A DNA stretch of 64,000 nucleotides, from contig JBBRWZ010000002.1 in the NCBI GenBank assembly GCA_038248895.1, forward strand, positions 9,847 to 73,846, in the 5' to 3' direction. Made by a program: the position numbers and the translations under genes. The number at the start of each line of letters is the position of its first letter. Positions within the stretch are counted from its first letter, which is position 1. This stretch comes from Candidatus Limnocylindria bacterium (GTDB lineage Bacteria; Chloroflexota; Limnocylindria; QHBO01). The notes under the pieces were generated by a model. It saw only the letters and a program-made list of their open reading frames with translations. It was not told the origin of the DNA and made no database searches. Below are positions 3,895 through 56,959 of the stretch, piece by piece.

Positions 3895-3912
3895 CCGCCC
3901 CGTGGAACGGCT

Positions 3913-4419
3913 ATGCTCCGCCGGCAAACGCCGACCACAGCGGAGAGCGCAGTGAATTGGATCCAGTTCGTGGTGCAGTGGGTGCACGTGCTGCTGGGCA
4001 TCACGTGGTTCGGCTACACCATCGCGATGTACTACCTGGTGGGCCCGGCAATCGCGGAGATGCCCGCTGACGGACAGCGGATGCTCAACGCTCGCCTGGG
4101 GGACATCGGCGAGCGCGTCTTTCCCATTGTCGGCGGGCTCGTCCTGCTGCTGGGCATCGTCCGCGGCACACTCCTCGGCCACATCCAGTCGCTGGACGCG
4201 CTGACATCCGCGTACGGCATCACGTGGGTCGTCGCGCTGGTCGCCACCATTGCGCTCTTCGTCACCGGCGCTCGGCTCATCGGTCCGGCGTTCGCGCAGA
4301 TGCGCACCGCGACTGACATCGGTGCCGCCAACGCGCGGCTGCGGTACCTCGGTCGCATCGACCTCGCGCTGTTCGGCGTCGTCTTCACCTGCATGGTGCT
4401 GATGCGCTTCGGCCTGTAG
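3913..4419 (+). CDS. Small integral membrane protein, unknown function (about 4 TM helices)
   Basis: Has GC3-rich codons and four hydrophobic segments. The first helix carries WVHVLLGITWFGY (H-x3-G-x2-W-x-G). An alternative start is GTG 3952, preceded by GGAG (3942-3945) with a 6-nt spacer. Confidence 0.6.
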   Translation: MLRRQTPTTAESAVNWIQFVVQWVHVLLGITWFGYTIAMYYLVGPAIAEMPADGQRMLNARLGDIGERVFPIVGGLVLLLGIVRGTLLGHIQSLDALTSAYGITWVVALVATIALFVTGARLIGPAFAQMRTATDIGAANARLRYLGRIDLALFGVVFTCMVLMRFGL

Positions 4420-4449
4420 CCGCGCAGCGCCACGCGGCACAATGGACGC

Positions 4450-6033
4450 ATGACCGAAACGCCTCCCGGAGTCACGCTCACCGCCCAGGCCGACCACGTC
4501 GACGAGGTGCTCACGCCGGAGGCGCTCTCCTTCGTGGCGCAGCTCCATCGGTCCTTCGCGCCCAGGCGGCGTCGCCTGCTGGAAGATCGTGCCCGGCGGC
4601 AGGCGCGCCTCGATGCCGGCGAGCTGCCCGACTTCCTGCCGAACCCCATCGAGAGCCGCGATCCGGAGTGGCGCGTCGCCGCCGCGCCAGCCGACTTCGA
4701 CGACCGCCGGGTCGAGATCACCGGTCCGGCCGAGCCGAAGATGATGATCAACGCGCTGAACTCCGGCGCATCGGTCTTCATGTGCGACTTCGAGGACGCC
4801 CTCTCCCCCACCTGGGCCAACATCGTCACCGGTCACTGGGCCGTGAGCCGTGCCGTGCGGCGCGAGCTCAGCCACGAGACCGAAGCGAAGGCCTACACGC
4901 TCAACGCCGAGATCGCGACGCTCTGCATCCGACCGCGCGGCTGGCATCTGCCGGAAGCGCATGTGCTCGTGGACGGCGAGCCGATCAGCGCCAGCATCTT
5001 CGACTTCGGCATCTGGTTCTTCCACAACGCCGCCGAGCTGCTGGCCCGCGGCAGTGGCCCGTACCTCTACCTGCCGAAGCTGGAGAGCCACCTCGAGGCA
5101 GAGCTCTGGAACGAGGTCTTCGTCGCCGCGCAGCAGGCCCTCGACGTGCCGCAGGGCTCGGTGCGCGCCACCGTGCTCATCGAGACGATCCTCGCCGCGT
5201 TCGAGATGGACGAGATCCTGTACGAGCTGCGCGACCACGCGGCGGGGTTGAACGCCGGACGCTGGGACTACATCTTCAGCATGATCAAGAAGTTCCGCGG
5301 CCGCGACGACAAGGTGCTCCCGGACCGCGCGCTGGTGACGATGAGGGTCCCCTTCATGCGCGCCTACACCGAGCTGCTTGTCCAGACCTGCCACCGTCGC
5401 GGCGCGCACGCGATCGGCGGCATGGCGGCGTTCATCCCCTCACGCCGCGACGCCGACGCGAACGAGCGCGCCCTGGCCGCGGTACGCGACGACAAGGAGC
5501 GCGAGTCGCGTGACGGCTTCGATGGCACCTGGGTCGCGCACCCGGACCTCGTGCCGCTGGCGCGCGAGGTGTTCGACCGCGTCCTCGCGGAGCGGCCGAA
5601 CCAGAAGGACCGCCTCCGGCCCGAAGTCGCGGTCACCGCGACCGAGCTGCTCGACACGCACATCCCCGGTGCTCGCGTCAGCGAGGCTGGCGTGCGGGCC
5701 AACATCTCGGTTGGGCTCGCGTATCTGGCCTCGTGGCTCAGCGGCAACGGGGCGGCCGCCATCAACAACCTGATGGAGGACGCCGCCACGGCCGAGATCA
5801 GCCGCTCCCAGCTCTGGCAGTGGCGCGTCAACCGCACGTTGCTCGACGATGGGGCGGCGTTCACGGCGGACCGATACGCAGCAGTCCGCGACGAGGAGCT
5901 CGCCACGCTCCGGTCGACCACCCCCGACGCCCCGTGGGATGCTGCCGCTGCGCTCCTCGACGATCTCGTCCTGTCCGCCGAGTTCGCCGAGTTCCTCACC
6001 CTGGGCGCGTACGAGAGCCTTCTCTCCGCCTGA
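4450..6033 (+). CDS. aceB: Malate synthase A
   Basis: 527 aa, with end-to-end resemblance to malate synthase A ([63 protein letters not shown]). Confidence 0.93.
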
Positions 6034-45896: not shown

Positions 45897-46427
45897 TCAG
45901 TTGAGGTGGCTGTTCATGCGAGGGCAGAGGTGGCCACGCTCATCGATCGCCTGGTCGCAGAAGGGGCACGTTGGGCGTCCCGCGGCGACGAGGTCGCTGG
46001 CGCGTCGCACGAAGTCGCGGGCTGGCCCCATCGGCAGGCTGACGCGGAACACGTCCGGACCATCGGGCATGTCATCGGCGACCTCCACGTAGTCGCCCGA
46101 CTCGCTCACCGGCTGAGCCTCCAGGACGATGCGCCCGGCGTCGGCATCCCACGCGAGCGCCATGACGCCGGCGCGGAACGCCTCGACCAGCGGCTCGTCG
46201 AGCGGGTCGTCATCCCGGGCTGGCGGTGCGGCTGCGTCGTCGTCGAGCGCGCTGACGAGGTCGTCCATGCGCGCGGCGAGCGCCGCCACCTGCGTCTTCT
46301 CTACGATGAGGCTCACGATGGCCGCGCCCTGGCGTGCCTGGAGGTAGAAGGTGCGATCCCCGGGCGCGCCGATGGTGCCGGCGATGAAGCGATCCGGGTC
46401 CGTGAAGCGGAAGAGTCTGCGGGCCAT
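45897..46427 (-). CDS. DUF3090 family protein
   Basis: Begins MARRLFRFTDPDRFIAGTIGAPGDRTFYLQA and ends ...GRPTCPFCDQAIDERGHLCPRMNSH, matching the DUF3090 pattern as I remember it. An alternative start is 46436. Confidence 0.8.
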   Translation of the reverse strand: MARRLFRFTDPDRFIAGTIGAPGDRTFYLQARQGAAIVSLIVEKTQVAALAARMDDLVSALDDDAAAPPARDDDPLDEPLVEAFRAGVMALAWDADAGRIVLEAQPVSESGDYVEVADDMPDGPDVFRVSLPMGPARDFVRRASDLVAAGRPTCPFCDQAIDERGHLCPRMNSHLN

Positions 46428-46571
46428 GCGCCCCATCCTACCCAGTCGTGTCGCGCCTGACACGGGGACGGGATCGGAGATGTGCCCGATCCCCGATCCC
46501 GCTTCCCGATCTACGAGCCGGGCTTCGCCGTCCTTGCTCCGGCGATGTGCCCGCCCGGCTCGATCGAGGGC

Positions 46572-46601
46572 AGCGTACGCCGTGGTGGCGACGCCTGTCA
46601 A
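46572..46601 (-). promoter_or_regulatory. Sigma-70-like promoter candidate upstream of the DUF3090 gene
   Basis: On the minus strand, TTGACA (46601-46596) is followed by an 18-nt spacer and TACGCT (46577-46572). The -35 is part of the inverted repeat GTCAA-N7-TTGAC. Confidence 0.4.
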
Positions 46602-46653: not shown

Positions 46654-47952
46654 TCAGGCCAGGGTGAGGGCGCGGCTCGAGAGCTCGTAGGCGCCGCGAT
46701 GGTCGCCGGCAGCGGCGCGGAGATCCGCCCACTCGCGGAGCACCTCGCGGAGGCGCCCGTCGAGCTGCGCGTCGCGTGCCACGTCGGACGCGATCGCGAA
46801 CCGGTCCTCGGCGGCGGCGAGGTCGCCGTCGTCGCGGAGGATGCGGGCCTCCGTCAGCGTCGCGGCCAGCTCGACCAGCCGGTTGCCGCTCGCGCGGGCG
46901 CGCACGATGGCGGCTGCCGCCAGCGACCGGGCAGCAGTGGGGTCGCCGCCGCGGAAGGCCACCTGCGCCTCCGTCTCCAGGATGGCGGCCAGGATCCGCT
47001 CGTCGCCGGCCTGCTCTGCCTGGCGATGCGCCGCGGCCGCGTACTCGCGCGCCCGATCCATGTCTCCGGCCGCGAGATAGGCAAGCGCGAGATCATTTTC
47101 GATGGAGGCCGATTCGAGCTCGGAGCCGGCCGCGCGGAAGAGGCCGAGTGCCTGCGTCCCACTCCGGATGGCCGCCTCCAGGTCGCCTGTCTCACGGTAG
47201 GTGATGGCGAGGTTGAAGAGGTACGTCGCGCGGCGTCGATCGTCGAGGTCGCCGGCGAAGCCGCGCGCCTCCTCGAGGTAGCGGAGGGCGCGCTCGTGAT
47301 CGCCGGAGCGTGACTCGACCGCGGAGATGGCGGTGAGCAGGCGCATCTCGAACTCGGGCTCGACGAGGAGTCCGGCACGCACGCCGTCGAGCAGCGCGGT
47401 CAGCATGGTGCGCGCCTCCGCCTCCGCATCCGACTGGTAGAGGCCATAGGCGAGCCAGTAGCGGGCCAGCGCGGCGTCTTCTGCACGACCGATCTCCTCG
47501 TAGCGGCGCGCCGCCTCGGAGGCGGCCAGCACCGCTTCGCGGCCACGACCCAGGCGTGCCTCCGCCTCAGCCACGCCACGCAGCAGGTCGGCGCGGCCGG
47601 CGTCCTCCCCGGCGACAGCGAGCAGCGCGCGGTAGCCGTCGGCCGCGACCTGCCACTCGCCGGCGGCGAGCTGCAGGTCCACCTCGAGCCGGCTCCACGC
47701 GGGATGCCGCTCGTCGATGAAGTGTGATGCGGGCAGTCCGAGGCGCTCGCAGAGGTAGCGCAGCGCAACCATGCTCGGCCGGGCGATCCCCGTCTCGAGC
47801 GCGCTGACGTACGCCTTGGTATATCGATCGCCGGCCAGCTGCTGCTGTGTCAGGCCGACGCGATGGCGCGCCTCCCTGATGCGAGCACCGATCCGGTGGG
47901 CGAGCGCCACGTCCTGTTCCGTCGCTCGCGCGACCGATTTCGTCCTCGGCAT
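46654..47952 (-). CDS. XRE-family HTH transcriptional regulator with large TPR-repeat domain
   Basis: 432 aa. The N-terminal HTH is IREARHRVGLTQQQLAGDRYTKAYVSALETGIARPSMVALRYLCERLGL. The remaining ~350 aa consist of repeated Ala/Leu/Arg-rich TPR-like helical pairs. Confidence 0.88.
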   Translation of the reverse strand: MPRTKSVARATEQDVALAHRIGARIREARHRVGLTQQQLAGDRYTKAYVSALETGIARPSMVALRYLCERLGLPASHFIDERHPAWSRLEVDLQLAAGEWQVAADGYRALLAVAGEDAGRADLLRGVAEAEARLGRGREAVLAASEAARRYEEIGRAEDAALARYWLAYGLYQSDAEAEARTMLTALLDGVRAGLLVEPEFEMRLLTAISAVESRSGDHERALRYLEEARGFAGDLDDRRRATYLFNLAITYRETGDLEAAIRSGTQALGLFRAAGSELESASIENDLALAYLAAGDMDRAREYAAAAHRQAEQAGDERILAAILETEAQVAFRGGDPTAARSLAAAAIVRARASGNRLVELAATLTEARILRDDGDLAAAEDRFAIASDVARDAQLDGRLREVLREWADLRAAAGDHRGAYELSSRALTLA

Positions 47953-47960
47953 GCACGGGA

Positions 47961-47990
47961 GTGTACACCGCGCGGCAAGTCAATCTTGAC
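47961..47990. promoter_or_regulatory. Two palindromes in the regulator/small-ORF divergent spacer: GTGTACAC and GTCAA-TC-TTGAC
   Basis: GTGTACAC occupies 47961-47968 and GTCAATCTTGAC occupies 47979-47990. On the minus strand, TACACT (47965-47960) ends 7 nt before the regulator ATG. Confidence 0.4.
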
Positions 47991-48124
47991 GGGAGGCAAC
48001 ACCAAACGTACGGGGTGATGAGGGCGGGCTTGGTACTGTCGACCCATTGTTCCCGGGGACCGATGGCGCGAGCGTGGGAGTCCAAGCCACCCGACGGGGG
48101 TGGCACGTACGACGGAGACCTGCA

Positions 48125-48244
48125 ATGCGCGCATCCCGGATCCTTCGATCCATCCTGCTCGCGGGCACGGTTGCCGCGGTCGGCCTCATGTCGATCGCCT
48201 CCTCGGTCCTGGGCGTTACCACCGGAGGCGGCTTCCCTCACTGA
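48125..48244 (+). CDS. 39-aa small exported peptide candidate (signal-peptide-like N-terminus, polar C-terminal tail)
   Basis: ATG 48125 lies 7 nt after GGAG (48114-48117). About 80% of third codon positions are G/C, like neighbouring genes. The product is MRASRILRSILLAGTVAAVGLMSIASSVLGVTTGGGFPH. A strong hairpin follows 30 nt downstream. Confidence 0.5.
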   Translation: MRASRILRSILLAGTVAAVGLMSIASSVLGVTTGGGFPH

Positions 48245-48274
48245 GGCACCGCACACCGATCCCGCACCCTAGCC

Positions 48275-48300
48275 GAAGCCACGCCGCCCAGCGTGGCTTC
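48275..48300. terminator. Bidirectional terminator-like hairpin between the small ORF and ligD
   Basis: Perfect 10-bp stem GAAGCCACGC / GCGTGGCTTC with loop CGCCCA, followed by TTCCTC on the plus strand. It lies 23 nt from the ligD stop. Confidence 0.65.
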
Positions 48301-48323
48301 TTCCTCGTCCGGGAGTCGGCAGG

Positions 48324-50987
48324 TCAGATGCTGGGCAGCTCCTGCTCGCGTGTCAGCACCGCGGCGAACAGGTCCCCGGTCTCGGCGAGGCGTGCCGGCA
48401 GGGTGCGAATGGTCCAGCGGTCGGGGCGCAGCGCGGGGTCGTCGAGCTCGTCCCAGCGAATCGGTGCCGACACCGGAGCGCCGGCAGCCGGCCGCGGCGA
48501 GTACGGAGCGACCAGCGTCTTGTTGATCGCGTTCTGCGTGAAGTCAAGCCGGGCGCGTCCACGCCGCGCCCGCTTCGCCCACTCCCAGCTCACGAGATCC
48601 GGGACGATTGCCCCCACCGCGCGGCTGAGCCCCTCCACCCAGTCCCGCGTCTCGTCGAAGGCATAGCGCGGCGCGATCGGCACCCAGACCTGGATCCCCC
48701 GCTTGCCGGTCACCTTGGGCACGCCCACGACGCCGAGGTGGTCGAGCGCCGTGCGGTACAGCCGCGCGAGGGCGAGCACCTCCTCCCAGGTGGTGGCGTC
48801 ACCGGGGTCGATGTCGATGAGGGCGTACGTCGGGCGATCGGGCGCATCGATCCGACTCGTCCACGGATGCAGCTCGATGGCAGCCTCCTGCGCCAGCCAG
48901 GCGAGCGTCGCCGGCTCGGTGACGACCACGTAGTCCTTCGGACCCTCGTCGTGATGCACGTAGCGCCAGCGGTCGACCCAGGCGGGGGCGTGGGCGGGCA
49001 GGTCCTTCTGCCAGAACCCCTTCGCATCGGTTCCGTTCGGGAAGCGCTGCACGGTGGTCCCGCGTCCGGCCAGGTATGGCACCAGGGTGGGACCGATGGT
49101 CGCGTGGTAGCGCAGCAGGTCACGCTTCGTCACCGGCTCCTCGCCGGGGCGTGCCGGTGCCAAGACCTTGTCGAGATTGGTGACCCGCACCTCGCGCCCG
49201 GCGATCAGCCATGGCCCATCGCGGTTCATGGCGTCGAGAGCTCCGATCGCCGCACCGAGTGCATCAGCCGCGTCGTGTGCCGTGGGGACGCTACCCCGCG
49301 ACGAGGACCGCGACGGGCGACGGGCGGCCCGTGCCGCAGCACGGACGGCCGCGCCGGAATCCACCGCCGTCTCGCGCCGCACCGCGCGCGCCGCATTCCC
49401 GATCTCGAGACCCTTGTAGGCAGCCTGCCGCAGCAGCCCGTCGCTCGTCCACTCGGCGAACTCGACCCGGATGACGAGCCGCGGCTCGACCCAGTGCGCT
49501 CCCTTCAACCGCGGGACCGGGTCCAGCGGCGGCTCGTCGCACGCCAGCGTGTCGAGGCGCTCCCGGAGCATGCGGCGGGTGCGCGTGTCGATTCCCGAGC
49601 CGACCTGGCCGGCGTGCACCAGCCGATCGCCGTCGTGGACAGCCAGGATGAGCGAGCCGAGCTCACGATGCGTCCCCTGCCCCGCCAGCCAGCCGGCGAT
49701 CACCACCTCCTGCTCGCGCCGCAGCTTGATCTTGAGCCAGCTCTTCGAGCGGCGCCCCGGCTCGTAGCGCGAGCTGCGCAGCTTCGCCACCACCCCCTCC
49801 AGCTCCTGCTCGCGTGCCGCGTCGACGAACGCCTCGCCGTCCGCGATCACGTGCGACCCGAAGCGGACCATGGGATGGTCGCGCAGGACCGACCGGAGAA
49901 GCCGCTTGCGGTGCTCGAGCGGAACGTCGAGCAACGAACGACCGTCGTGATGCAGCAGGTCGAAGACCTGGTAGACGATGGGAATCCCGGCCCGCTCCGC
50001 GTTCGACGCCCGCGGGTGGTCACCGGCTGACCCGGGCCCGTGGAGCCCGCGCAGGCCGGACACGTCCTGCAGCAGGCTGAAGCTCGGGCGACCCCGGTCA
50101 TCGACCGCGATCACCTCCCCGTCCACGATCGCATCGCGGGCGGTGATCCACCCCCGGGCCTCCGCCAGCGTGGGAAAGTAGCGGGCGGCATCCTGGCGGT
50201 TGCGTGTCCAGAGGCGGATGTCGTTGCCATGCACCACCGCCTCGACCCGGTAGCCGTCCCACTTGACCTCGTACAGCCAATCGGGATGGCTGAACGGCCC
50301 GCTGCCGAGCGTCGCCTTCATCGGCTGGACGAATTCGGGCAGCAGCTCCGCACGCGCGCGTGCCAGGTCGATCTCCGCCTCGGCTGCCGGCGCGTTGGCG
50401 TCCCAGCGCGCCGGCTCGCCGGCCTGCACCTCGGGGTTGGTGCGACCGGATTTGACCGACGTCGGGTGCGCCTCCGCATTCCAGCCCGCGACCGCGGACT
50501 CGTCGCGCTTGTGGATGAGCAGCCACTTCTCGCGGTCGTCGGCGTCGCCGTGCCGGCCGCTCGTGCGCAGAATGGTGAAGCGCCCCGTGAGCCGCTCCCC
50601 GTGGAGGCGAAACTTGATCTCGCCCTTCCGCAGGGCTGCCGCCGGGTCGGGGGTCTCCTCCTCCGGCTCCCACGTTCCCCAGTCCCAGACGATGACGTCG
50701 CCGGCACCGTATTCCCCGCGACCGATGCTGCCCTCGAAATCGAGATACTCGATCGGGTGGTCCTCGGTCCGCATGGCCAGCCGCTTCTCATCGGGGTCGA
50801 CGGTCGGCCCCTTTGGCACGGCCCAGCTGACGAGCACGCCACCGATCTCGAGCCTGAAGTCGTAATGCAGTGCCGTCGCCCGGTGGCGCTGCACCGTGAA
50901 GCGGCGGCCGTCGCCGGCCGACTCCGCCCCCGACGGCTCTGCTGTTCGCGCGAAGTCACGCTTGGACCGATAGACCTCGAGCGGCAT
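48324..50987 (-). CDS. ligD: Multidomain ATP-dependent DNA ligase LigD (phosphoesterase-ligase-polymerase order)
   Basis: 887 aa. The PE domain carries RFTVQRHRATALHYDFRLE. The ligase adenylation motif is EVKWDGYR. The C-terminal primase-polymerase domain carries TKRDLLRYHATIGPTLVPYL and FDLDP-like IDIDP. Confidence 0.93.
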   Translation of the reverse strand: MPLEVYRSKRDFARTAEPSGAESAGDGRRFTVQRHRATALHYDFRLEIGGVLVSWAVPKGPTVDPDEKRLAMRTEDHPIEYLDFEGSIGRGEYGAGDVIVWDWGTWEPEEETPDPAAALRKGEIKFRLHGERLTGRFTILRTSGRHGDADDREKWLLIHKRDESAVAGWNAEAHPTSVKSGRTNPEVQAGEPARWDANAPAAEAEIDLARARAELLPEFVQPMKATLGSGPFSHPDWLYEVKWDGYRVEAVVHGNDIRLWTRNRQDAARYFPTLAEARGWITARDAIVDGEVIAVDDRGRPSFSLLQDVSGLRGLHGPGSAGDHPRASNAERAGIPIVYQVFDLLHHDGRSLLDVPLEHRKRLLRSVLRDHPMVRFGSHVIADGEAFVDAAREQELEGVVAKLRSSRYEPGRRSKSWLKIKLRREQEVVIAGWLAGQGTHRELGSLILAVHDGDRLVHAGQVGSGIDTRTRRMLRERLDTLACDEPPLDPVPRLKGAHWVEPRLVIRVEFAEWTSDGLLRQAAYKGLEIGNAARAVRRETAVDSGAAVRAAARAARRPSRSSSRGSVPTAHDAADALGAAIGALDAMNRDGPWLIAGREVRVTNLDKVLAPARPGEEPVTKRDLLRYHATIGPTLVPYLAGRGTTVQRFPNGTDAKGFWQKDLPAHAPAWVDRWRYVHHDEGPKDYVVVTEPATLAWLAQEAAIELHPWTSRIDAPDRPTYALIDIDPGDATTWEEVLALARLYRTALDHLGVVGVPKVTGKRGIQVWVPIAPRYAFDETRDWVEGLSRAVGAIVPDLVSWEWAKRARRGRARLDFTQNAINKTLVAPYSPRPAAGAPVSAPIRWDELDDPALRPDRWTIRTLPARLAETGDLFAAVLTREQELPSI

Positions 50988-54022: not shown

Positions 54023-56869
54023 TCACCACTCGACGAGCTTCCAGATCTCCGGCTGCATGGTGCTCGGCTCGCCGATCTCCGCGAAGAGGGTCACCGCGCG
54101 GCGGAGCTCCTCCATCGCCTCGGCGTCGCGTCCGGCGGCACGGAGCAGATCGGCAAGGTTGTTCCGCAGCGCCGCCTCGCGATGCAGATCGCCGCGTGCC
54201 GCGCAGAGGCGCAGTGCCGCGGCAGTGAGCTCGATCGCCGGCCCCACCGATCCGGCCTCGCGCTCGACGAGGGCGAGGTTGTTCAACGCGGCGATGCGGG
54301 CCGGTCCTGATGGAGGTGCGACGTCGAGTGCCACGCGCAGGTGGTCCCGCGCCGCATCGAGATTCCCGGCGGCACGCTCGGCCATGGCGAGGACGTTGTG
54401 GGCCTGGGCAAGGACGTCGGTGGCCCCGGCCTCGGTCGCGGCCTGCGCCGCCGCGGCGGCCAATGCGCGGGCGACACCGGCATCTCCGCGTCGCAGGCCA
54501 ATGAGGGCACGGTCGGCGAGAATCGAGCCGCGTTCGGCGTGGTCGCCCATCTCGAGCGACGCCAGCGCCGCACCCAGGTGCGCGTCGGCGACGAGCCACG
54601 CCCCGCGACGGAGGTGGACGTCCCCAAGCCGCCGCTCCAGGCGTGCCAGGTCGCGGCCGGCGGCGCGGGCGGACGCCGCCTCGTACGTCGCGACCGCCGC
54701 CGCGTAGCGGCCGAGCCGGGTCTGGAGCTCACCGATCCGCTCGCGGATTCGGCGCGGGTCACCGGGCTCGAGGGCGAGCGCCGCCTCGTAGTGCTCGAGG
54801 GCCTCGACATTGGCGAAGAGCCGTTCCGCCTCGGCAGCGGCCACGAGCAGCTGGTCGACCGCCCGCTCGTCGTCGCCCGCCTCGCGGAAGTGGGTGGCAA
54901 CGACCCCCGCCATCGACCGCGCCCCGCGCCGCCGGACGACGCCGGCGAGGGCCTCTGCCACCCGACGGTGGAGCAGCCGGCCGCGGCCGGGACCGATCGC
55001 GGCGACGACCACGTCGCGCGTCGTCTCGTGGTCGACGTCATACGAGGCATCGGACGCGGACGCGCGCAGCAGGCCGCGCGCCACGAGCTCGTCGAGCGCC
55101 GTTGCGACCTCCTCGCTGCTACGTCCGCTGACAGCGCGAACCAGGTCCGGCTCGAATGGCTGACCGATGATCGCCGCGGCGTCGAGGACCTGGCGCGCCG
55201 GTGGCGACGCCTCCTCGATGCGGGCGCGTACGAGGTCGGCAAGATCGCCCGGCACGCCCTCCAGCAGCGCCCCCCCGCCTGCGAGGTCGCCGTGCCTGAT
55301 GCGGCCAAGGTACGAGGCGACGATCGCCGGATTGCCGCCACTGCGTGCCATGAGCTGCGTCGCGAGATCGCCACCGTCGTCACCCAGCGGCCCTGCGGCG
55401 ACGAGGCGCCGGACGCCGTCCGCGGAGAGCGGCGCGAGGCGAAGCTCGACGAGCGATTCGACGCGTGCCGCCGCCCGTCGCAGCGGCGCGAGGCGCCGGG
55501 CCCCGGGATCGTCGGAGCGGGCCAGGAGGACAATCGCGAGGCATCGGTCCGGGAGCCGGCGCACCACGTAGGCGAGGACCGCCAGCGAGGCGTCGTCGAC
55601 CCACTGCGCATCGTCGACGAGGACTCCCCCGCCGGCGCCGACGGCGCGTTCGACTGCCTTGGCGAGGCCGGCGATGAACTGCACCGATCCGGCCTCATCG
55701 GTCCCGATGGCGGCGGCGGTACCACCGGGGAGGAGACGCTCGGCGGCACGGTCCGCGGCATCGACGGGCGCGGTCCCTGCAGCCTCGGGACGACTCGCGC
55801 TGAGCAGCTCGGCGACGAGGGCGAAGGGAAGCGTCCGCTCCCCCGGGTGTGCGCGGAGAGCGCGGAACGTGAGGCCGGATGCCGTCAGCGCCGCGCCGAG
55901 CTCGGCAGCGAAGCGCGTCCGTCCGATCCCGGCGGGACCCTCGATTACGACGAGGCGGCCCGCCGTGCTCGCCGTCCGGCAGGCGTCGACCGCCAGGCGC
56001 AGCGCAGCGCCGCGCTCCACGAGCGGCAGTCGATCGGCCGGAGGCGCGGCGATCGGGACCGTCGCCCCAGTCGGGATCGGCATTGACTGCCGGTCACCGG
56101 CGGCAATCCGTTCGTAGAGCTGCGTCGTCTCGGGCAGCGGCTCGACCCCGAGCTCATCGGCGAGCACCCGGACGCACGAGCGGTACTGTCGCATCGCCTC
56201 ACTGCGCTCGCCGCGCAGGGTGTGCAGCTCCATCAGCCGCCGGTGGGCCGGTTCGTGGAGCGGATCGAGGGCCACCCAGCGACGCGCATGCTCGAGCAGC
56301 ACGGTCCCGCCGTCACGGGCCGACGGATCGGGGCGTGACAGCCGATCGAGCAGCTGCGCGAGCGTCGCCTGGCGAGTCTCGGCCACCGACGCCAGCCAAT
56401 CGTCGAACTCGGGACTGTCGCGGAGGCCGAAGCCGGCGAGCAGCGGACCGCGATGCAGCGCTGCGGCGCGCTCCAGGCGTCGGCGGCACGACGGGCAGGG
56501 TGGGCCGGGATCGGCATGCCGTGCGACCTGGTCGAGGAGCCGATCCACCTCCCGGACGTCAACGTGCACCCCGAGGCCGTCGACAGCGAGAAGGCGCCCG
56601 CTCGCCGCCGGCCACGCCCCGCCCAGCCCCGCGCGCGTCACCGACAGCGTCCGACGCAGCGCGGACCCGGCGTGCACGTCGTCGAGCTCCGGCCAGAGCA
56701 GCGTCTGCACCTGGTCACGCGACTGCGGCCCGGCGCCGAGCGCGAGCACGGCGAGGAGCGCAACCGCCTTCCGGGTATCGAACTGGACGGGTGTCCCGTC
56801 GAGGTCCACGAGGGGCGTCCCGAGCAGCCGCAGCCGAAGGTCCGGAACGTGGACGCGGTTGCTGGTCAT
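54023..56869 (-). CDS. SARP/AfsR-like regulator: winged-helix + BTAD + P-loop NTPase (degenerate Walker A) + C-terminal TPR
   Basis: Start ATG 56869 gives 948 aa. The N-terminal OmpR-type DNA-binding region is LRLRLLGTPLVDLDG...LLWPE. The BTAD region is HEPAHRRLMELHTLRGERSEAMRQYRSCVRVLADELGVEP. The NTPase P-loop is GPAGIGRT. The C-terminus carries TPR repeats. Confidence 0.88.
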   Translation of the reverse strand: MTSNRVHVPDLRLRLLGTPLVDLDGTPVQFDTRKAVALLAVLALGAGPQSRDQVQTLLWPELDDVHAGSALRRTLSVTRAGLGGAWPAASGRLLAVDGLGVHVDVREVDRLLDQVARHADPGPPCPSCRRRLERAAALHRGPLLAGFGLRDSPEFDDWLASVAETRQATLAQLLDRLSRPDPSARDGGTVLLEHARRWVALDPLHEPAHRRLMELHTLRGERSEAMRQYRSCVRVLADELGVEPLPETTQLYERIAAGDRQSMPIPTGATVPIAAPPADRLPLVERGAALRLAVDACRTASTAGRLVVIEGPAGIGRTRFAAELGAALTASGLTFRALRAHPGERTLPFALVAELLSASRPEAAGTAPVDAADRAAERLLPGGTAAAIGTDEAGSVQFIAGLAKAVERAVGAGGGVLVDDAQWVDDASLAVLAYVVRRLPDRCLAIVLLARSDDPGARRLAPLRRAAARVESLVELRLAPLSADGVRRLVAAGPLGDDGGDLATQLMARSGGNPAIVASYLGRIRHGDLAGGGALLEGVPGDLADLVRARIEEASPPARQVLDAAAIIGQPFEPDLVRAVSGRSSEEVATALDELVARGLLRASASDASYDVDHETTRDVVVAAIGPGRGRLLHRRVAEALAGVVRRRGARSMAGVVATHFREAGDDERAVDQLLVAAAEAERLFANVEALEHYEAALALEPGDPRRIRERIGELQTRLGRYAAAVATYEAASARAAGRDLARLERRLGDVHLRRGAWLVADAHLGAALASLEMGDHAERGSILADRALIGLRRGDAGVARALAAAAAQAATEAGATDVLAQAHNVLAMAERAAGNLDAARDHLRVALDVAPPSGPARIAALNNLALVEREAGSVGPAIELTAAALRLCAARGDLHREAALRNNLADLLRAAGRDAEAMEELRRAVTLFAEIGEPSTMQPEIWKLVEW

Positions 56870-56959
56870 GATCACCAACAGCGTGGCGGATCGGTTCGCG
56901 CTCCGCAATTGACCGATCATCGGAGACCGTAACGATCACCGAACGCCGCACCGCGTAGC

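Follow-up and report, generated by a model that had tools for sequence, protein, structure and literature searches.

A conserved pair of an XRE-type regulator gene and a small signal-peptide gene in Limnocylindria, a strong candidate for peptide signalling

Introduction

Limnocylindria are abundant, uncultivated Chloroflexota of soil and freshwater, and to our knowledge almost nothing is known about regulation in these bacteria. The subject of this study is a pair of genes in a 64-kb window of a Candidatus Limnocylindria (Chloroflexota) genome. The window is the whole stretch of DNA that was analysed, and coordinates are given as positions in it. One gene encodes a regulator with a DNA-binding domain and a long repeat domain. 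The other is a very small open reading frame (ORF) on the opposite strand, with a product resembling an export signal followed by a short peptide. In a first-pass annotation, made from the letters of the window, the two were read as a candidate pair of a peptide receptor and the precursor of its ligand. The question raised by this locus is whether the two genes belong together and, if they do, whether the small product could be the ligand of the regulator. The two genes and the ribosome-binding site of the smaller one are placed as follows.

46654-47952, minus strand: regulator gene, 432 amino acids (aa), with an XRE-type helix-turn-helix (HTH) and a superhelix of tetratricopeptide repeats (TPR), the proposed peptide receptor (from the ORF, Pfam and an AlphaFold2 model)
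48125-48244, plus strand: small ORF of 39 codons and a stop, the proposed peptide precursor (ATG at 48125, stop at 48242-48244, product MRASRILRSILLAGTVAAVGLMSIASSVLGVTTGGGFPH)
48114-48117, plus strand: Shine-Dalgarno sequence GGAG, 7 nt before the ATG of the small ORF

The window has a G+C content of 71%. ORFs abound in GC-rich DNA, and 69 with a length of 30 aa or more overlap the 7 kb around the pair. A 39-codon ORF is therefore uninformative by itself, and the case depends on comparison with relatives. On that comparison, the conserved pair is a strong candidate for a type of peptide signalling that until now has been described in Firmicutes only.

Conservation of the gene pair

Two sets of loci were compared. 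The genome set consisted of 80 loci (L001-L080) around regulator relatives in GTDB genomes. The metagenome set consisted of 80 loci fetched with an alignment of distant regulator relatives, including clades with 44-55% identity. Four genome loci were left out, three of them (L010, L060 and L079) cut by a contig end and one (L078) beginning inside the regulator gene. A homologous small ORF was found upstream of the regulator and divergent from it in all 76 genome loci with enough upstream DNA, at a distance of about 165-195 nt. It was also present in 69 of the 80 metagenome loci, and the remaining 11 all had a truncated flank on at least one side. Lack of the small ORF beside orthologous regulators had been named at the outset as the first observation that would speak against the pair. 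The search was run and the pairing was kept in every testable locus (145 of 145, 76 from genomes and 69 from metagenomes), over a range of regulator identity of 41-100%.

The surroundings of the pair were less constant. At 64-100% identity the genes came in the order LigD, small ORF (on the opposite strand), regulator and DUF3090; in some clades an NfuA-like gene stood between LigD and the small ORF, and in some a membrane protein between the regulator and DUF3090. The neighbour on the far side of the small ORF varied and was LigD, the NfuA-like gene or others. Clades at 44-55% identity had unrelated neighbourhoods without LigD and still carried a mini-gene with a signal peptide beside the regulator. 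Two arrangements of the small ORF were observed, either upstream and divergent or convergent just past the regulator stop. In each case it was a separate transcription unit, convergent with the gene beyond it. Because adjacency survives rearrangement and relocation in all testable loci, the pairing belongs to the regulator and, as judged from these gene positions, is tied to it and not to the neighbourhood.

Every named member of the family that was found belonged to Limnocylindria, Limnocylindrales or Chloroflexota. Eight records carry the names Steroidobacteraceae, Angelobacter or Binatia (L012, L015, L026, L032, L039, L050, L058 and L070). Where their flanks permitted checking, they showed a typical Limnocylindria locus; most had LigD and DUF3090, and all had a peptide gene of the Limnocylindria type. 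These records are probably mis-binned contigs or mislabelled metagenome-assembled genomes (MAGs).

More distant relatives were also compared. The regulator of locus L161 is 33% identical to the window protein and is followed by two paralogous 46-aa signal-peptide ORFs in convergent orientation (MREAFLVLVLLAVFAVALDGPAGQLVNPGTPISQHAEVIIGLPGGG and a sister, at 3896-4036 and 4334-4474, minus strand), with a sigma-70-family gene adjoining them. Possibly L161 holds a similar system, more remote and with a pro-peptide of greater length. Two relatives of the Ktedonobacteraceae type gave negative results. No adjacent small signal-peptide ORF was found in L163, which was read in all six frames, and no adjacent small ORF was found among the called genes of L164, for which only called genes were listed.

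Translation of the small ORF

The 39-codon ORF had been described with its ATG at 48125, on the opposite strand 172 nt from the regulator start and with GGAG 7 nt upstream, and all of this was confirmed. The same holds for every other feature that the first-pass annotation had placed in the window. In the intergenic alignment the start codon and an aaGGAG block before it were conserved, the latter at 80% or more. The ORF had also been described as rich in codons ending in G or C. The G+C content at third codon positions is 0.80 in frame versus 0.65 and 0.62 in the other frames, with values of 0.87-0.89 for the neighbouring genes.

Selection on the product was analysed in a codon alignment of 60 precursors of the long form described below. 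The invariant residues R8, A13, G34 and P38 were each encoded by four different codons. The ratio of non-synonymous to synonymous differences (pN/pS), summed over all pairs, was 0.57 in frame versus 1.07 and 1.66 in the shifted frames. Since the ORF is conserved beside the regulators, synonymous codons vary at invariant residues and pN/pS is below 1 in this frame only, the small ORF is, on comparative evidence, a real gene that is translated and under selection at the protein level. A profile search with the peptides returned 314 clusters of 39-41-aa proteins, in which every named protein was a hypothetical protein. No Pfam domain was found in these 314 clusters.

Architecture of the precursor

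Precursors were collected from 146 loci, giving 103 unique sequences of 12-45 aa with 72 distinct cores; 88 of the unique sequences were long precursors. Signal peptide and cleavage site were predicted by rule (the -3/-1 rule and its conservation), and the cleavage position was counted eight residues back from the last Pro. For the precursor in the window this gave the following parts.

48125-48214, plus strand: predicted Sec signal peptide, residues 1-30 (n-region MRASRILR of net charge +3, hydrophobic core, cleavage residues V28-L29-G30)
48215-48241, plus strand: predicted mature peptide VTTGGGFPH (core VTTGGGFP at 48215-48238, tail His at 48239-48241)

All long precursors followed one pattern, consisting of a basic N-terminus, a hydrophobic segment of about 20 uncharged residues, a small-x-small (AxA-type) site and a core of eight residues. 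Position -1 was A or G in 83 of the 88 unique long precursors, and position -3 was V or A, likewise in 83 of 88. The core ended in [FWYLMIV]-P and could be aligned without gaps in all loci. It was followed directly by the stop, by one residue, usually basic, or in one clade by three to five residues. A few sequences were exceptions, with seven residues before the Pro or without the Pro (DGQPPIPR, and DSIPGPW in L129). Examples of cores from other clades are VTGGGDFP, CSNGNGFP, VTGGGTWP, DHGPGGWP, DNGKGSWP, TTPPPPWP and GSGGPPFP. Cores with an initial Cys directly after VAA, VMA or AMA were seen in L032, L035, L049, L059, L068, L017, L042, L101 and L147. The mature peptide VTTGGGFPH proposed in the first reading equals the predicted product of cleavage after the conserved V-x-G/A site, and its first eight residues are the unit conserved in the family.

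Twenty-four loci had no hydrophobic segment at all. In these loci the ORF is reduced to 12 codons, in which M-x-x precedes the octapeptide and a single residue follows it, as in MQHVTNGSGFPA, MRSASTGGGWPV and MSSATTGGGWPR. The short ORFs were preceded by the Shine-Dalgarno sequence AAGGAG or GGGAG in most loci, and by GGAG or GGGAGA in a few, with its 3' end 5-9 nt before the start. Short forms in the genome set were found in L026, L028, L040, L041, L045, L046, L054, L056-L058, L062, L065, L071, L073, L076 and L080, in each case on the upstream side of the regulator gene, some 200-300 nt ahead of position 6001 of the locus. They occurred in at least two well-supported regulator clades (100/100 and 95/100 bootstraps), and the long-form clade with the core CSNGNGFP branched among them. 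Short-form regulators made up one clade in only 1 of 100 neighbour-joining bootstrap trees, the deep branching order of which is poorly supported. The signal peptide was probably lost independently two or more times.

A further variant was found in L055 (about 5700-5830, minus strand), where the 24-nt core stretch is exactly duplicated in tandem, resulting in MQL-VTNGTGFP-VTNGTGFP-A (MQLVTNGTGFPVTNGTGFPA). Because the leaderless 12-codon forms keep the core and L055 duplicates exactly the eight core codons, the variation among precursors points to the octapeptide, and not the signal peptide, as the functional unit.

Sequence family and fold of the regulator

The regulator can be divided into two domains, for which the following limits were obtained.

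47719-47919, minus strand: HTH DNA-binding domain, residues 12-78 (model helices 12-32, 36-40, 46-54 and 61-71)
46663-47691, minus strand: TPR superhelix, residues 88-430, the proposed peptide-binding domain (seventeen paired helices of 13-18 residues in the model)

A Pfam search matched HTH_3 at residues 25-75 with 21.7 bits, just under the gathering cutoff of 23 bits, and TPR_12 with E=9e-16. The AlphaFold2 model had a mean predicted local distance difference test score (pLDDT) of 88 and a predicted template modelling score (pTM) of 0.75. It showed an N-terminal helical HTH followed by about 17 paired helices over residues 100-430. The original description of a 432-aa protein with an N-terminal XRE-type HTH and TPR-like repeats agrees with these matches and with the superhelix of the model. 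Other Pfam and NCBIfam matches were to generic TPR and HTH models or were below threshold, such as the NsdA family (39.7 bits versus a cutoff of 75). A weak NCBIfam match of the TPR region was to a TPR protein of cyclophane-forming peptides that are made by the ribosome and modified after translation (RiPPs), the HaaT family, with an E-value of 6e-6, far below its cutoff.

The protein collection held 1437 relatives at E<=1e-5. The best 120 of these 1437 were 66-100% identical and nearly all 426-463 aa long, and the named ones were from Candidatus Limnocylindria/Chloroflexota MAGs. The full-length relatives listed had about 420-480 aa. A phmmer search over 1.84 billion representatives found 113 clusters at E<=1e-30, including about 30 full-length relatives at 41-55% identity, for which the names were Limnocylindrales or Chloroflexota. 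The HTH motif RYTKAY[VI]SALE.G was the most conserved stretch across the wide family. One distant relative (P0441) carries the Joint Genome Institute (JGI) automatic name 'quorum sensing regulator NprR'. This automated label is not evidence, and it shows that pipelines already put the wider HTH-TPR group near the RRNPP proteins.

Among solved structures, the closest sequence match was the HTH of PlcR (2qfc, E=4e-6, residues 18-79). Matches to RapH (E=0.012) and ComR (E=0.11) were weak and over short stretches. A Foldseek search of the model against the PDB placed LGN/Pins complexes first, with 3sf4, 4wng and 8jal among the best matches. The highest query TM score, 0.61, was obtained for CRL2-APPBP2 bound to a C-terminal RxxGP degron. 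Among viral structures, the search for AimR- or Rap-like neighbours returned only generic TPR proteins of giant viruses. The comparison by AlphaFold and Foldseek, proposed together with the first reading, yielded an HTH and a TPR superhelix whose structural neighbours are peptide-binding TPR proteins, Rap-Phr complexes included. The predicted fold class fits a peptide receptor, and by the same model and searches membership in a known RRNPP subfamily is not supported.

Variation of peptide and regulator

Each of the 72 distinct cores was fixed within a regulator clade and changed between clades. The recognition region of the HTH (RYTKAY[VI]SALE.G...PS) was near-invariant throughout the family, and the TPR part diverged. 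Regulator residue 160 was Glu in all 24 short-form loci versus 1 of 122 long-form loci. This residue is assigned to a groove-facing A helix in the model, on the basis of the helices listed for the model and of the register of the TPR_1 match that Pfam gives at residues 244-263. Asp at core position 6 coincided with Arg283, Arg354, Trp320 and Gln297 of the regulator. No receptor column convincingly separated Phe from Trp at core position 7; at the best residues (122, 151 and 208) the changes were conservative and were common in Phe lineages as well. Taken as sequence correlations, these patterns are suggestive of a peptide and a receptor that diversify together.

The control region

The two start codons are separated by a spacer of 172 nt (47953-48124). 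An alignment of 77 intergenic regions was used for the comparison of this region, and the following conserved blocks were located.

47960-47965, minus strand: TAnACT (TACACT in the window), 7 nt before the ATG of the regulator, in an AGTnTACA block conserved in the 77 intergenic regions
47974-47990, plus strand: GGCAAG-N6-TTGAC, the most conserved intergenic block, both hexamers near-invariant in 77 loci
48009-48014, plus strand: TACGGG, weak candidate -10 of the small-ORF promoter, 17 nt after TTGACG, with the conserved core GTAC
48041-48053, plus strand: block GGGTCATTGTCC (here GACCCATTGTTCC), conserved in the 77 intergenic regions, presumed 5' leader of the small ORF

No Shine-Dalgarno sequence was found before the regulator ATG. 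TAnACT, or TATAGT as in a distant clade that has it 7 nt before its ATG, was located 6-7 nt before the regulator start at the equivalent position in L001-L160. Because TAnACT sits 6-7 nt before the ATG without a Shine-Dalgarno sequence, a leaderless regulator mRNA is suggested, with TAnACT as its candidate -10. GGCAAG-N6-TTGAC is a candidate operator that would include the -35 (TTGAC) of the small-ORF promoter. It occurs as a single site in the window, which is no rare outcome by chance (38 of 100 shuffles). A block cGAaaGTACt was conserved at a fixed distance from TTGAC, and TACGGG is tentatively taken as the -10 of the small-ORF promoter. A strict sigma-70 promoter scan of 47850-48400 gave no match, so the promoter assignments rest on the conserved blocks alone. 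No Rfam match was obtained in the spacer or the leader at E<=1.

The clade with the convergent arrangement has a different motif. In every locus examined, TAATA[GC]TTGA overlapped the -35 of a good peptide-gene promoter (TTGAT-N17-TAnnnT), and the regulator's own promoter carried a related sequence. A search for the 10-mer that allowed up to two mismatches found that it recurs on the other strand between both stop codons in about half of the convergent-type loci, and in some loci also about 150 nt upstream of the regulator (L081, L085, L089, L096, L103, L120 and related loci, at about +1353..+1376, +1620..+1660 and -147..-164 from the regulator start). TAATA[GC]TTGA can be read as a multi-site operator candidate, and an antisense promoter is a possible role for its copy between the stop codons.

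Flanking genes and downstream hairpin

The features on either side of the pair in the window are given below.

48324-50987, minus strand: LigD gene with three domains (phosphoesterase, ligase and primase-polymerase), convergent with the small ORF and ending just beyond the hairpin
45897-46601, minus strand: DUF3090/TIGR03847 gene, next after the regulator (Pfam)
48275-48300: 10-bp hairpin with perfect arms (48275-48284 and 48291-48300) and a 6-nt loop, beginning 30 nt past the small-ORF stop

The LigD and DUF3090 flanks were kept in nearly all relatives at 64-100% regulator identity. The 10-bp hairpin noticed at the first reading, 30 nt after the stop, was found with the arms listed above. Together with its tail TTCTTCCTCG it received a terminator-like score in a scan of the plus strand. 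Lying between the small ORF and the convergent ligD, it may be an intrinsic terminator, perhaps for both genes. The stem was identical in L001, L002 and L006, and different, equally strong stems were found at the same spot in L003-L005. As a universally conserved terminator the hairpin was only partly supported, as in loci with a convergent NfuA-like gene the 'hairpin' falls inside the last codons of that gene.

A second TPR-containing regulator is encoded in the window, 6 kb from the pair. This AfsR/SARP-like protein of 965 aa (54023-56920, minus strand) has BTAD, AAA_16 and TPR_12 domains. A locus in two copies was also noted among the relatives. L056 and L057 are two contigs of one MAG (CAVZPD01) and carry two copies of the whole LigD/peptide/regulator/DUF3090 block, with peptides that differ in the last residue (L versus F). 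Two strains binned together are a more likely cause than paralogues.

Proposed mechanism and alternatives

We propose that the two genes form a module of peptide ligand and receptor that works like the RRNPP systems, and we regard this as probable. The small gene (48125-48244) would give a 39-aa precursor with a Sec-type signal peptide, which signal peptidase I would cut after V28-L29-G30. This would leave the nonapeptide VTTGGGFPH on the outside, with its first eight residues (up to Phe-Pro) as the functional unit. After re-import the peptide would bind to the cytoplasmic XRE-HTH regulator, in the concave groove formed by its TPR superhelix, and binding would alter the action of the regulator on the shared 172-nt control region. 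There, the candidate operator GGCAAG-N6-TTGAC overlaps the putative -35 of the peptide gene and is placed a short way upstream of the promoter of the regulator itself, which is probably leaderless. The outcome would be a peptide-dependent feedback loop as in PlcR-PapR, NprR-NprX and Rgg-SHP. The candidate pair of receptor and precursor seen in the first-pass annotation is supported in this form by the adjacency in 145 of 145 loci, the conserved octapeptide and the modelled HTH and TPR superhelix.

Several observations weigh against this proposal. Export, the cleavage site, re-uptake, binding by the TPR domain, the operator, the sign of regulation and a dependence on cell density are steps that we infer. 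In the Foldseek search Rap-Phr complexes (6t46, 4gyo and 8rsv) appeared only from rank 29 (E about 1e-6, TM 0.5-0.65), behind eukaryotic LGN/Pins and designed TPRs. Models specific for RRNPP proteins (RNPP_C PF18768, the Rgg C-terminal TIGR01716, NprR, PlcR, Rap and AimR) were not matched in Pfam and NCBIfam scans at E<=0.1. The predicted fold would indicate a 'peptide-binding type of TPR' and not 'RRNPP'. No Opp-type genes were present among the 17 window ORFs screened against Pfam, and no search aimed at oligopeptide importers was made in these genomes. Further copies of the operator, as expected of a regulon, were not found in the 64-kb window.

The peptides themselves add to these points. 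The 12-codon forms have no export signal, and there the peptide must exit in another way or act inside the cell; a purely Sec-dependent model is complicated because several lineages carry this signal-less version. The core starts with Cys in 9 of the 103 unique sequences, after a lipobox-like VAAC or VMAC, and such mature peptides could be lipid-modified and anchored in the membrane rather than free. The association of Asp with Arg rests on one clade, and the other covariation is confounded by shared descent in a tree that is not resolved at its base. Finally, the peptide is near-constant across many species (for example GGGDFP) and the pair is chromosomal and vertically inherited, unlike the fast-diverging and often mobile pherotypes of RRNPP systems.

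The main rival explanation is that the small ORF is a regulated target and not a ligand. The HTH-TPR protein would then sense another protein or a metabolite, and the exported octapeptide would act extracellularly or in the envelope, for instance by signalling to another receptor, by inhibition or as a metal- or surface-active peptide. Divergent pairs of regulator and target are the commonest layout in the XRE family, and the candidate operator overlaps the small-ORF promoter. TPR domains bind proteins too, and the fold matches of this one are generic. Adjacency in all 145 testable loci, kept even where the small ORF has switched sides or the neighbourhood is an unrelated one, is however unexpected for a plain target. 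Retention of the octapeptide after loss of the signal peptide speaks against an exclusively extracellular role. Residue 160 of the receptor follows the format of the peptide, and the TPR part diverges in step with the type of peptide while the HTH stays constant. A target gene is on these grounds unlikely, though a serious competitor.

Alternatively, the small product could be an intracellular partner that binds the regulator in the producing cell, without any signal between cells. In the long forms the signal peptide would tether the peptide or take it away, and the level of the peptide in the cytoplasm would be set by secretion capacity or membrane state. Such a role would account for the 12-codon forms, which have a strong Shine-Dalgarno sequence but lack the hydrophobic segment and are found in two regulator clades or more. 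It would also suit a peptide strongly conserved across species and a module that is chromosomal and vertical, which is atypical of quorum-sensing pherotypes. The binding of a short leaderless peptide to a transcription factor has a precedent in PatS-HetR. Most lineages, apparently including the ancestral state, nevertheless have a canonical signal peptide with the -3/-1 site right before the octapeptide, which is hard to explain unless release to the outside matters. In addition, the leaderless RRNPP pheromones SIP, SHP and XIP are still exported via dedicated transporters (PMC10075063). As a general explanation this one is quite improbable; for the short-form lineages a purely intracellular role of the peptide is possible.

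A third explanation is that the small ORF encodes the precursor of a RiPP, with the TPR protein as regulator or scaffold of the pathway. The short core rich in Gly, Pro and aromatic residues, the tandem duplication of the core in L055 and the weak HaaT-family match of the TPR region (E=6e-6, far below cutoff) would fit such a pathway. That match is generic TPR similarity, however, and no modifying enzyme was conserved beside the pair, the neighbours being LigD, DUF3090, MsrB, an NfuA-like protein and others that vary between clades. RiPP leaders, moreover, are not usually Sec signal peptides with AxA sites, and we find a RiPP precursor highly improbable.

It is scarcely credible that the ORF is untranslated and is conserved as an element at the level of DNA or RNA, such as a promoter, an operator or a small antisense RNA against ligD read-through. 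The region does lie within a densely conserved regulatory spacer and spurious ORFs are plentiful in GC-rich DNA, but synonymous codons turn over at invariant residues, pN/pS is below 1 in this frame alone, start codon, Shine-Dalgarno sequence and ORF length are conserved, the amino-acid rule holds in clades with unalignable DNA, and Rfam gives no match. Attenuation by a leader peptide or upstream ORF was ruled out, as the small ORF is followed by the hairpin and a convergent gene in every arrangement, with nothing downstream.

The ligand-receptor module is therefore the explanation that we carry forward. In a bolder version, the pair would be the first case outside Bacillota of a peptide-pheromone system that is ribosomally encoded and has a cytoplasmic receptor. 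It would have a class-wide, vertically inherited octapeptide code in Limnocylindria, ending in an aromatic residue and Pro and released by signal peptidase alone, and the signal peptide would have been lost more than once to leave 12-codon leaderless pheromone genes. We advance this version tentatively and find it nearly, though not quite, as credible as its opposite.

If the proposal is true, RRNPP-like communication is extended to another phylum, and on the bolder version peptide quorum sensing of the RRNPP type would be far older than the Firmicutes or would have arisen independently in another single-membrane (monoderm) phylum. The system would be unusually simple, with an unmodified octapeptide freed by signal peptidase alone, and 72 natural peptide variants matched to receptor variants would make specificity directly accessible to study. 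It would further offer natural switches between Sec-exported and leaderless pheromone genes, as well as concrete synthetic peptides that might influence Limnocylindria or help to cultivate them. Should the peptide be merely a regulated product, it would still constitute a new and widely conserved family of small proteins, listed in databases as 'hypothetical protein'.

Comparison with known systems

PatS-HetR of heterocyst-forming cyanobacteria is a system outside the Firmicutes in which the product of a very short leaderless ORF, with the C-terminal RGSGR as its active part, binds a cytoplasmic transcription factor. Unlike the Limnocylindria regulator, HetR is not an HTH-TPR protein. In addition, patS is not adjacent to hetR, and no form with a signal peptide occurs.

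The eukaryotic proteins LGN/Pins and the C-degron receptor APPBP2 were the best structural matches of the regulator and hold extended peptides in a concave groove. They have no DNA-binding domain and an unrelated biology, and the likeness is at the level of the fold class (TM 0.5-0.6, 14-18% identity). The C-terminal Gly-Pro read by APPBP2 recalls the aromatic-Pro end of the Limnocylindria octapeptide.

The literature gives RRNPP(A) systems as a feature of Bacillota, and the tools for their detection have been applied to Firmicutes and to mobile elements of this group (PMC10075063, PMC12700828). This agrees with the statement in the first-pass annotation that such systems are described essentially in Firmicutes. 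A full-text literature search for RRNPP and Chloroflexi together turned up a single paper, with one mention of each term. The RRNPP signature of Bernard et al. 2023 (PMC10075063) has five elements: a small propeptide (10-100 aa), a Sec signal for signal peptidase I (SPI) or the PptAB route, a receptor of 250-500 aa, TPRs, and direct adjacency. Four of the five were found in the Limnocylindria pair, namely a propeptide of 39 aa, a receptor of 432 aa, TPRs and adjacency. For the fifth, the Sec signal is a rule-based prediction, with a charge of +3, an uncharged core of about 20 aa and the -3/-1 rule in 83 of 88 long precursors; the 24 short-form loci have no signal.

Rgg-SHP, ComR-XIP and RopB-SIP of streptococci resemble the Limnocylindria pair in the divergent arrangement of a receptor gene and a tiny peptide gene that share a control region. 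SIP of the RopB system is a leaderless peptide of 8 aa (cited in PMC10075063), comparable in size to the 12-codon signal-less forms (MQHVTNGSGFPA, MRSASTGGGWPV), and by analogy it may serve as a precedent for them. SIP, SHP and XIP are leaderless and exported by dedicated transporters (PMC10075063). SHP, XIP and SIP are hydrophobic and have PptAB-type export, whereas the Limnocylindria peptides are rich in Gly, Thr and Pro and are polar except for the aromatic-Pro end. No exporter is adjacent to the Limnocylindria pair, and the regulator lacks the C-terminal signature of Rgg (no match to TIGR01716).

The RRNPP(A) systems with Sec propeptides (PlcR-PapR and NprR-NprX of Bacillus, AimR-AimP of phages) differ from the Limnocylindria pair in several respects. 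The Limnocylindria regulator has no RRNPP-specific sequence match, and the host belongs to Chloroflexota and not to Bacillota. PapR, NprX, Phr and AimP are cut from a longer pro-region, whereas the Limnocylindria unit starts at the predicted signal-peptidase site and would need no trimming by exoproteases. Its octapeptide is of fixed length with an invariant C-terminal hydrophobic-Pro, and natural transitions to leaderless 12-codon genes are seen. The pair is chromosomal and vertical, not accessory or mobile, and binding, import and density dependence are here proposed by analogy. In other respects the systems are alike. Both have a cytoplasmic receptor of 250-500 aa with an XRE-type HTH and a TPR superhelix, and among solved structures the Limnocylindria HTH is nearest to that of PlcR. 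Both have an adjoining small gene for a product with a Sec-type signal peptide (predicted by rule in Limnocylindria), and in this product the few C-terminal residues are the conserved unit, and in both the type of peptide and the receptor clade shift together.

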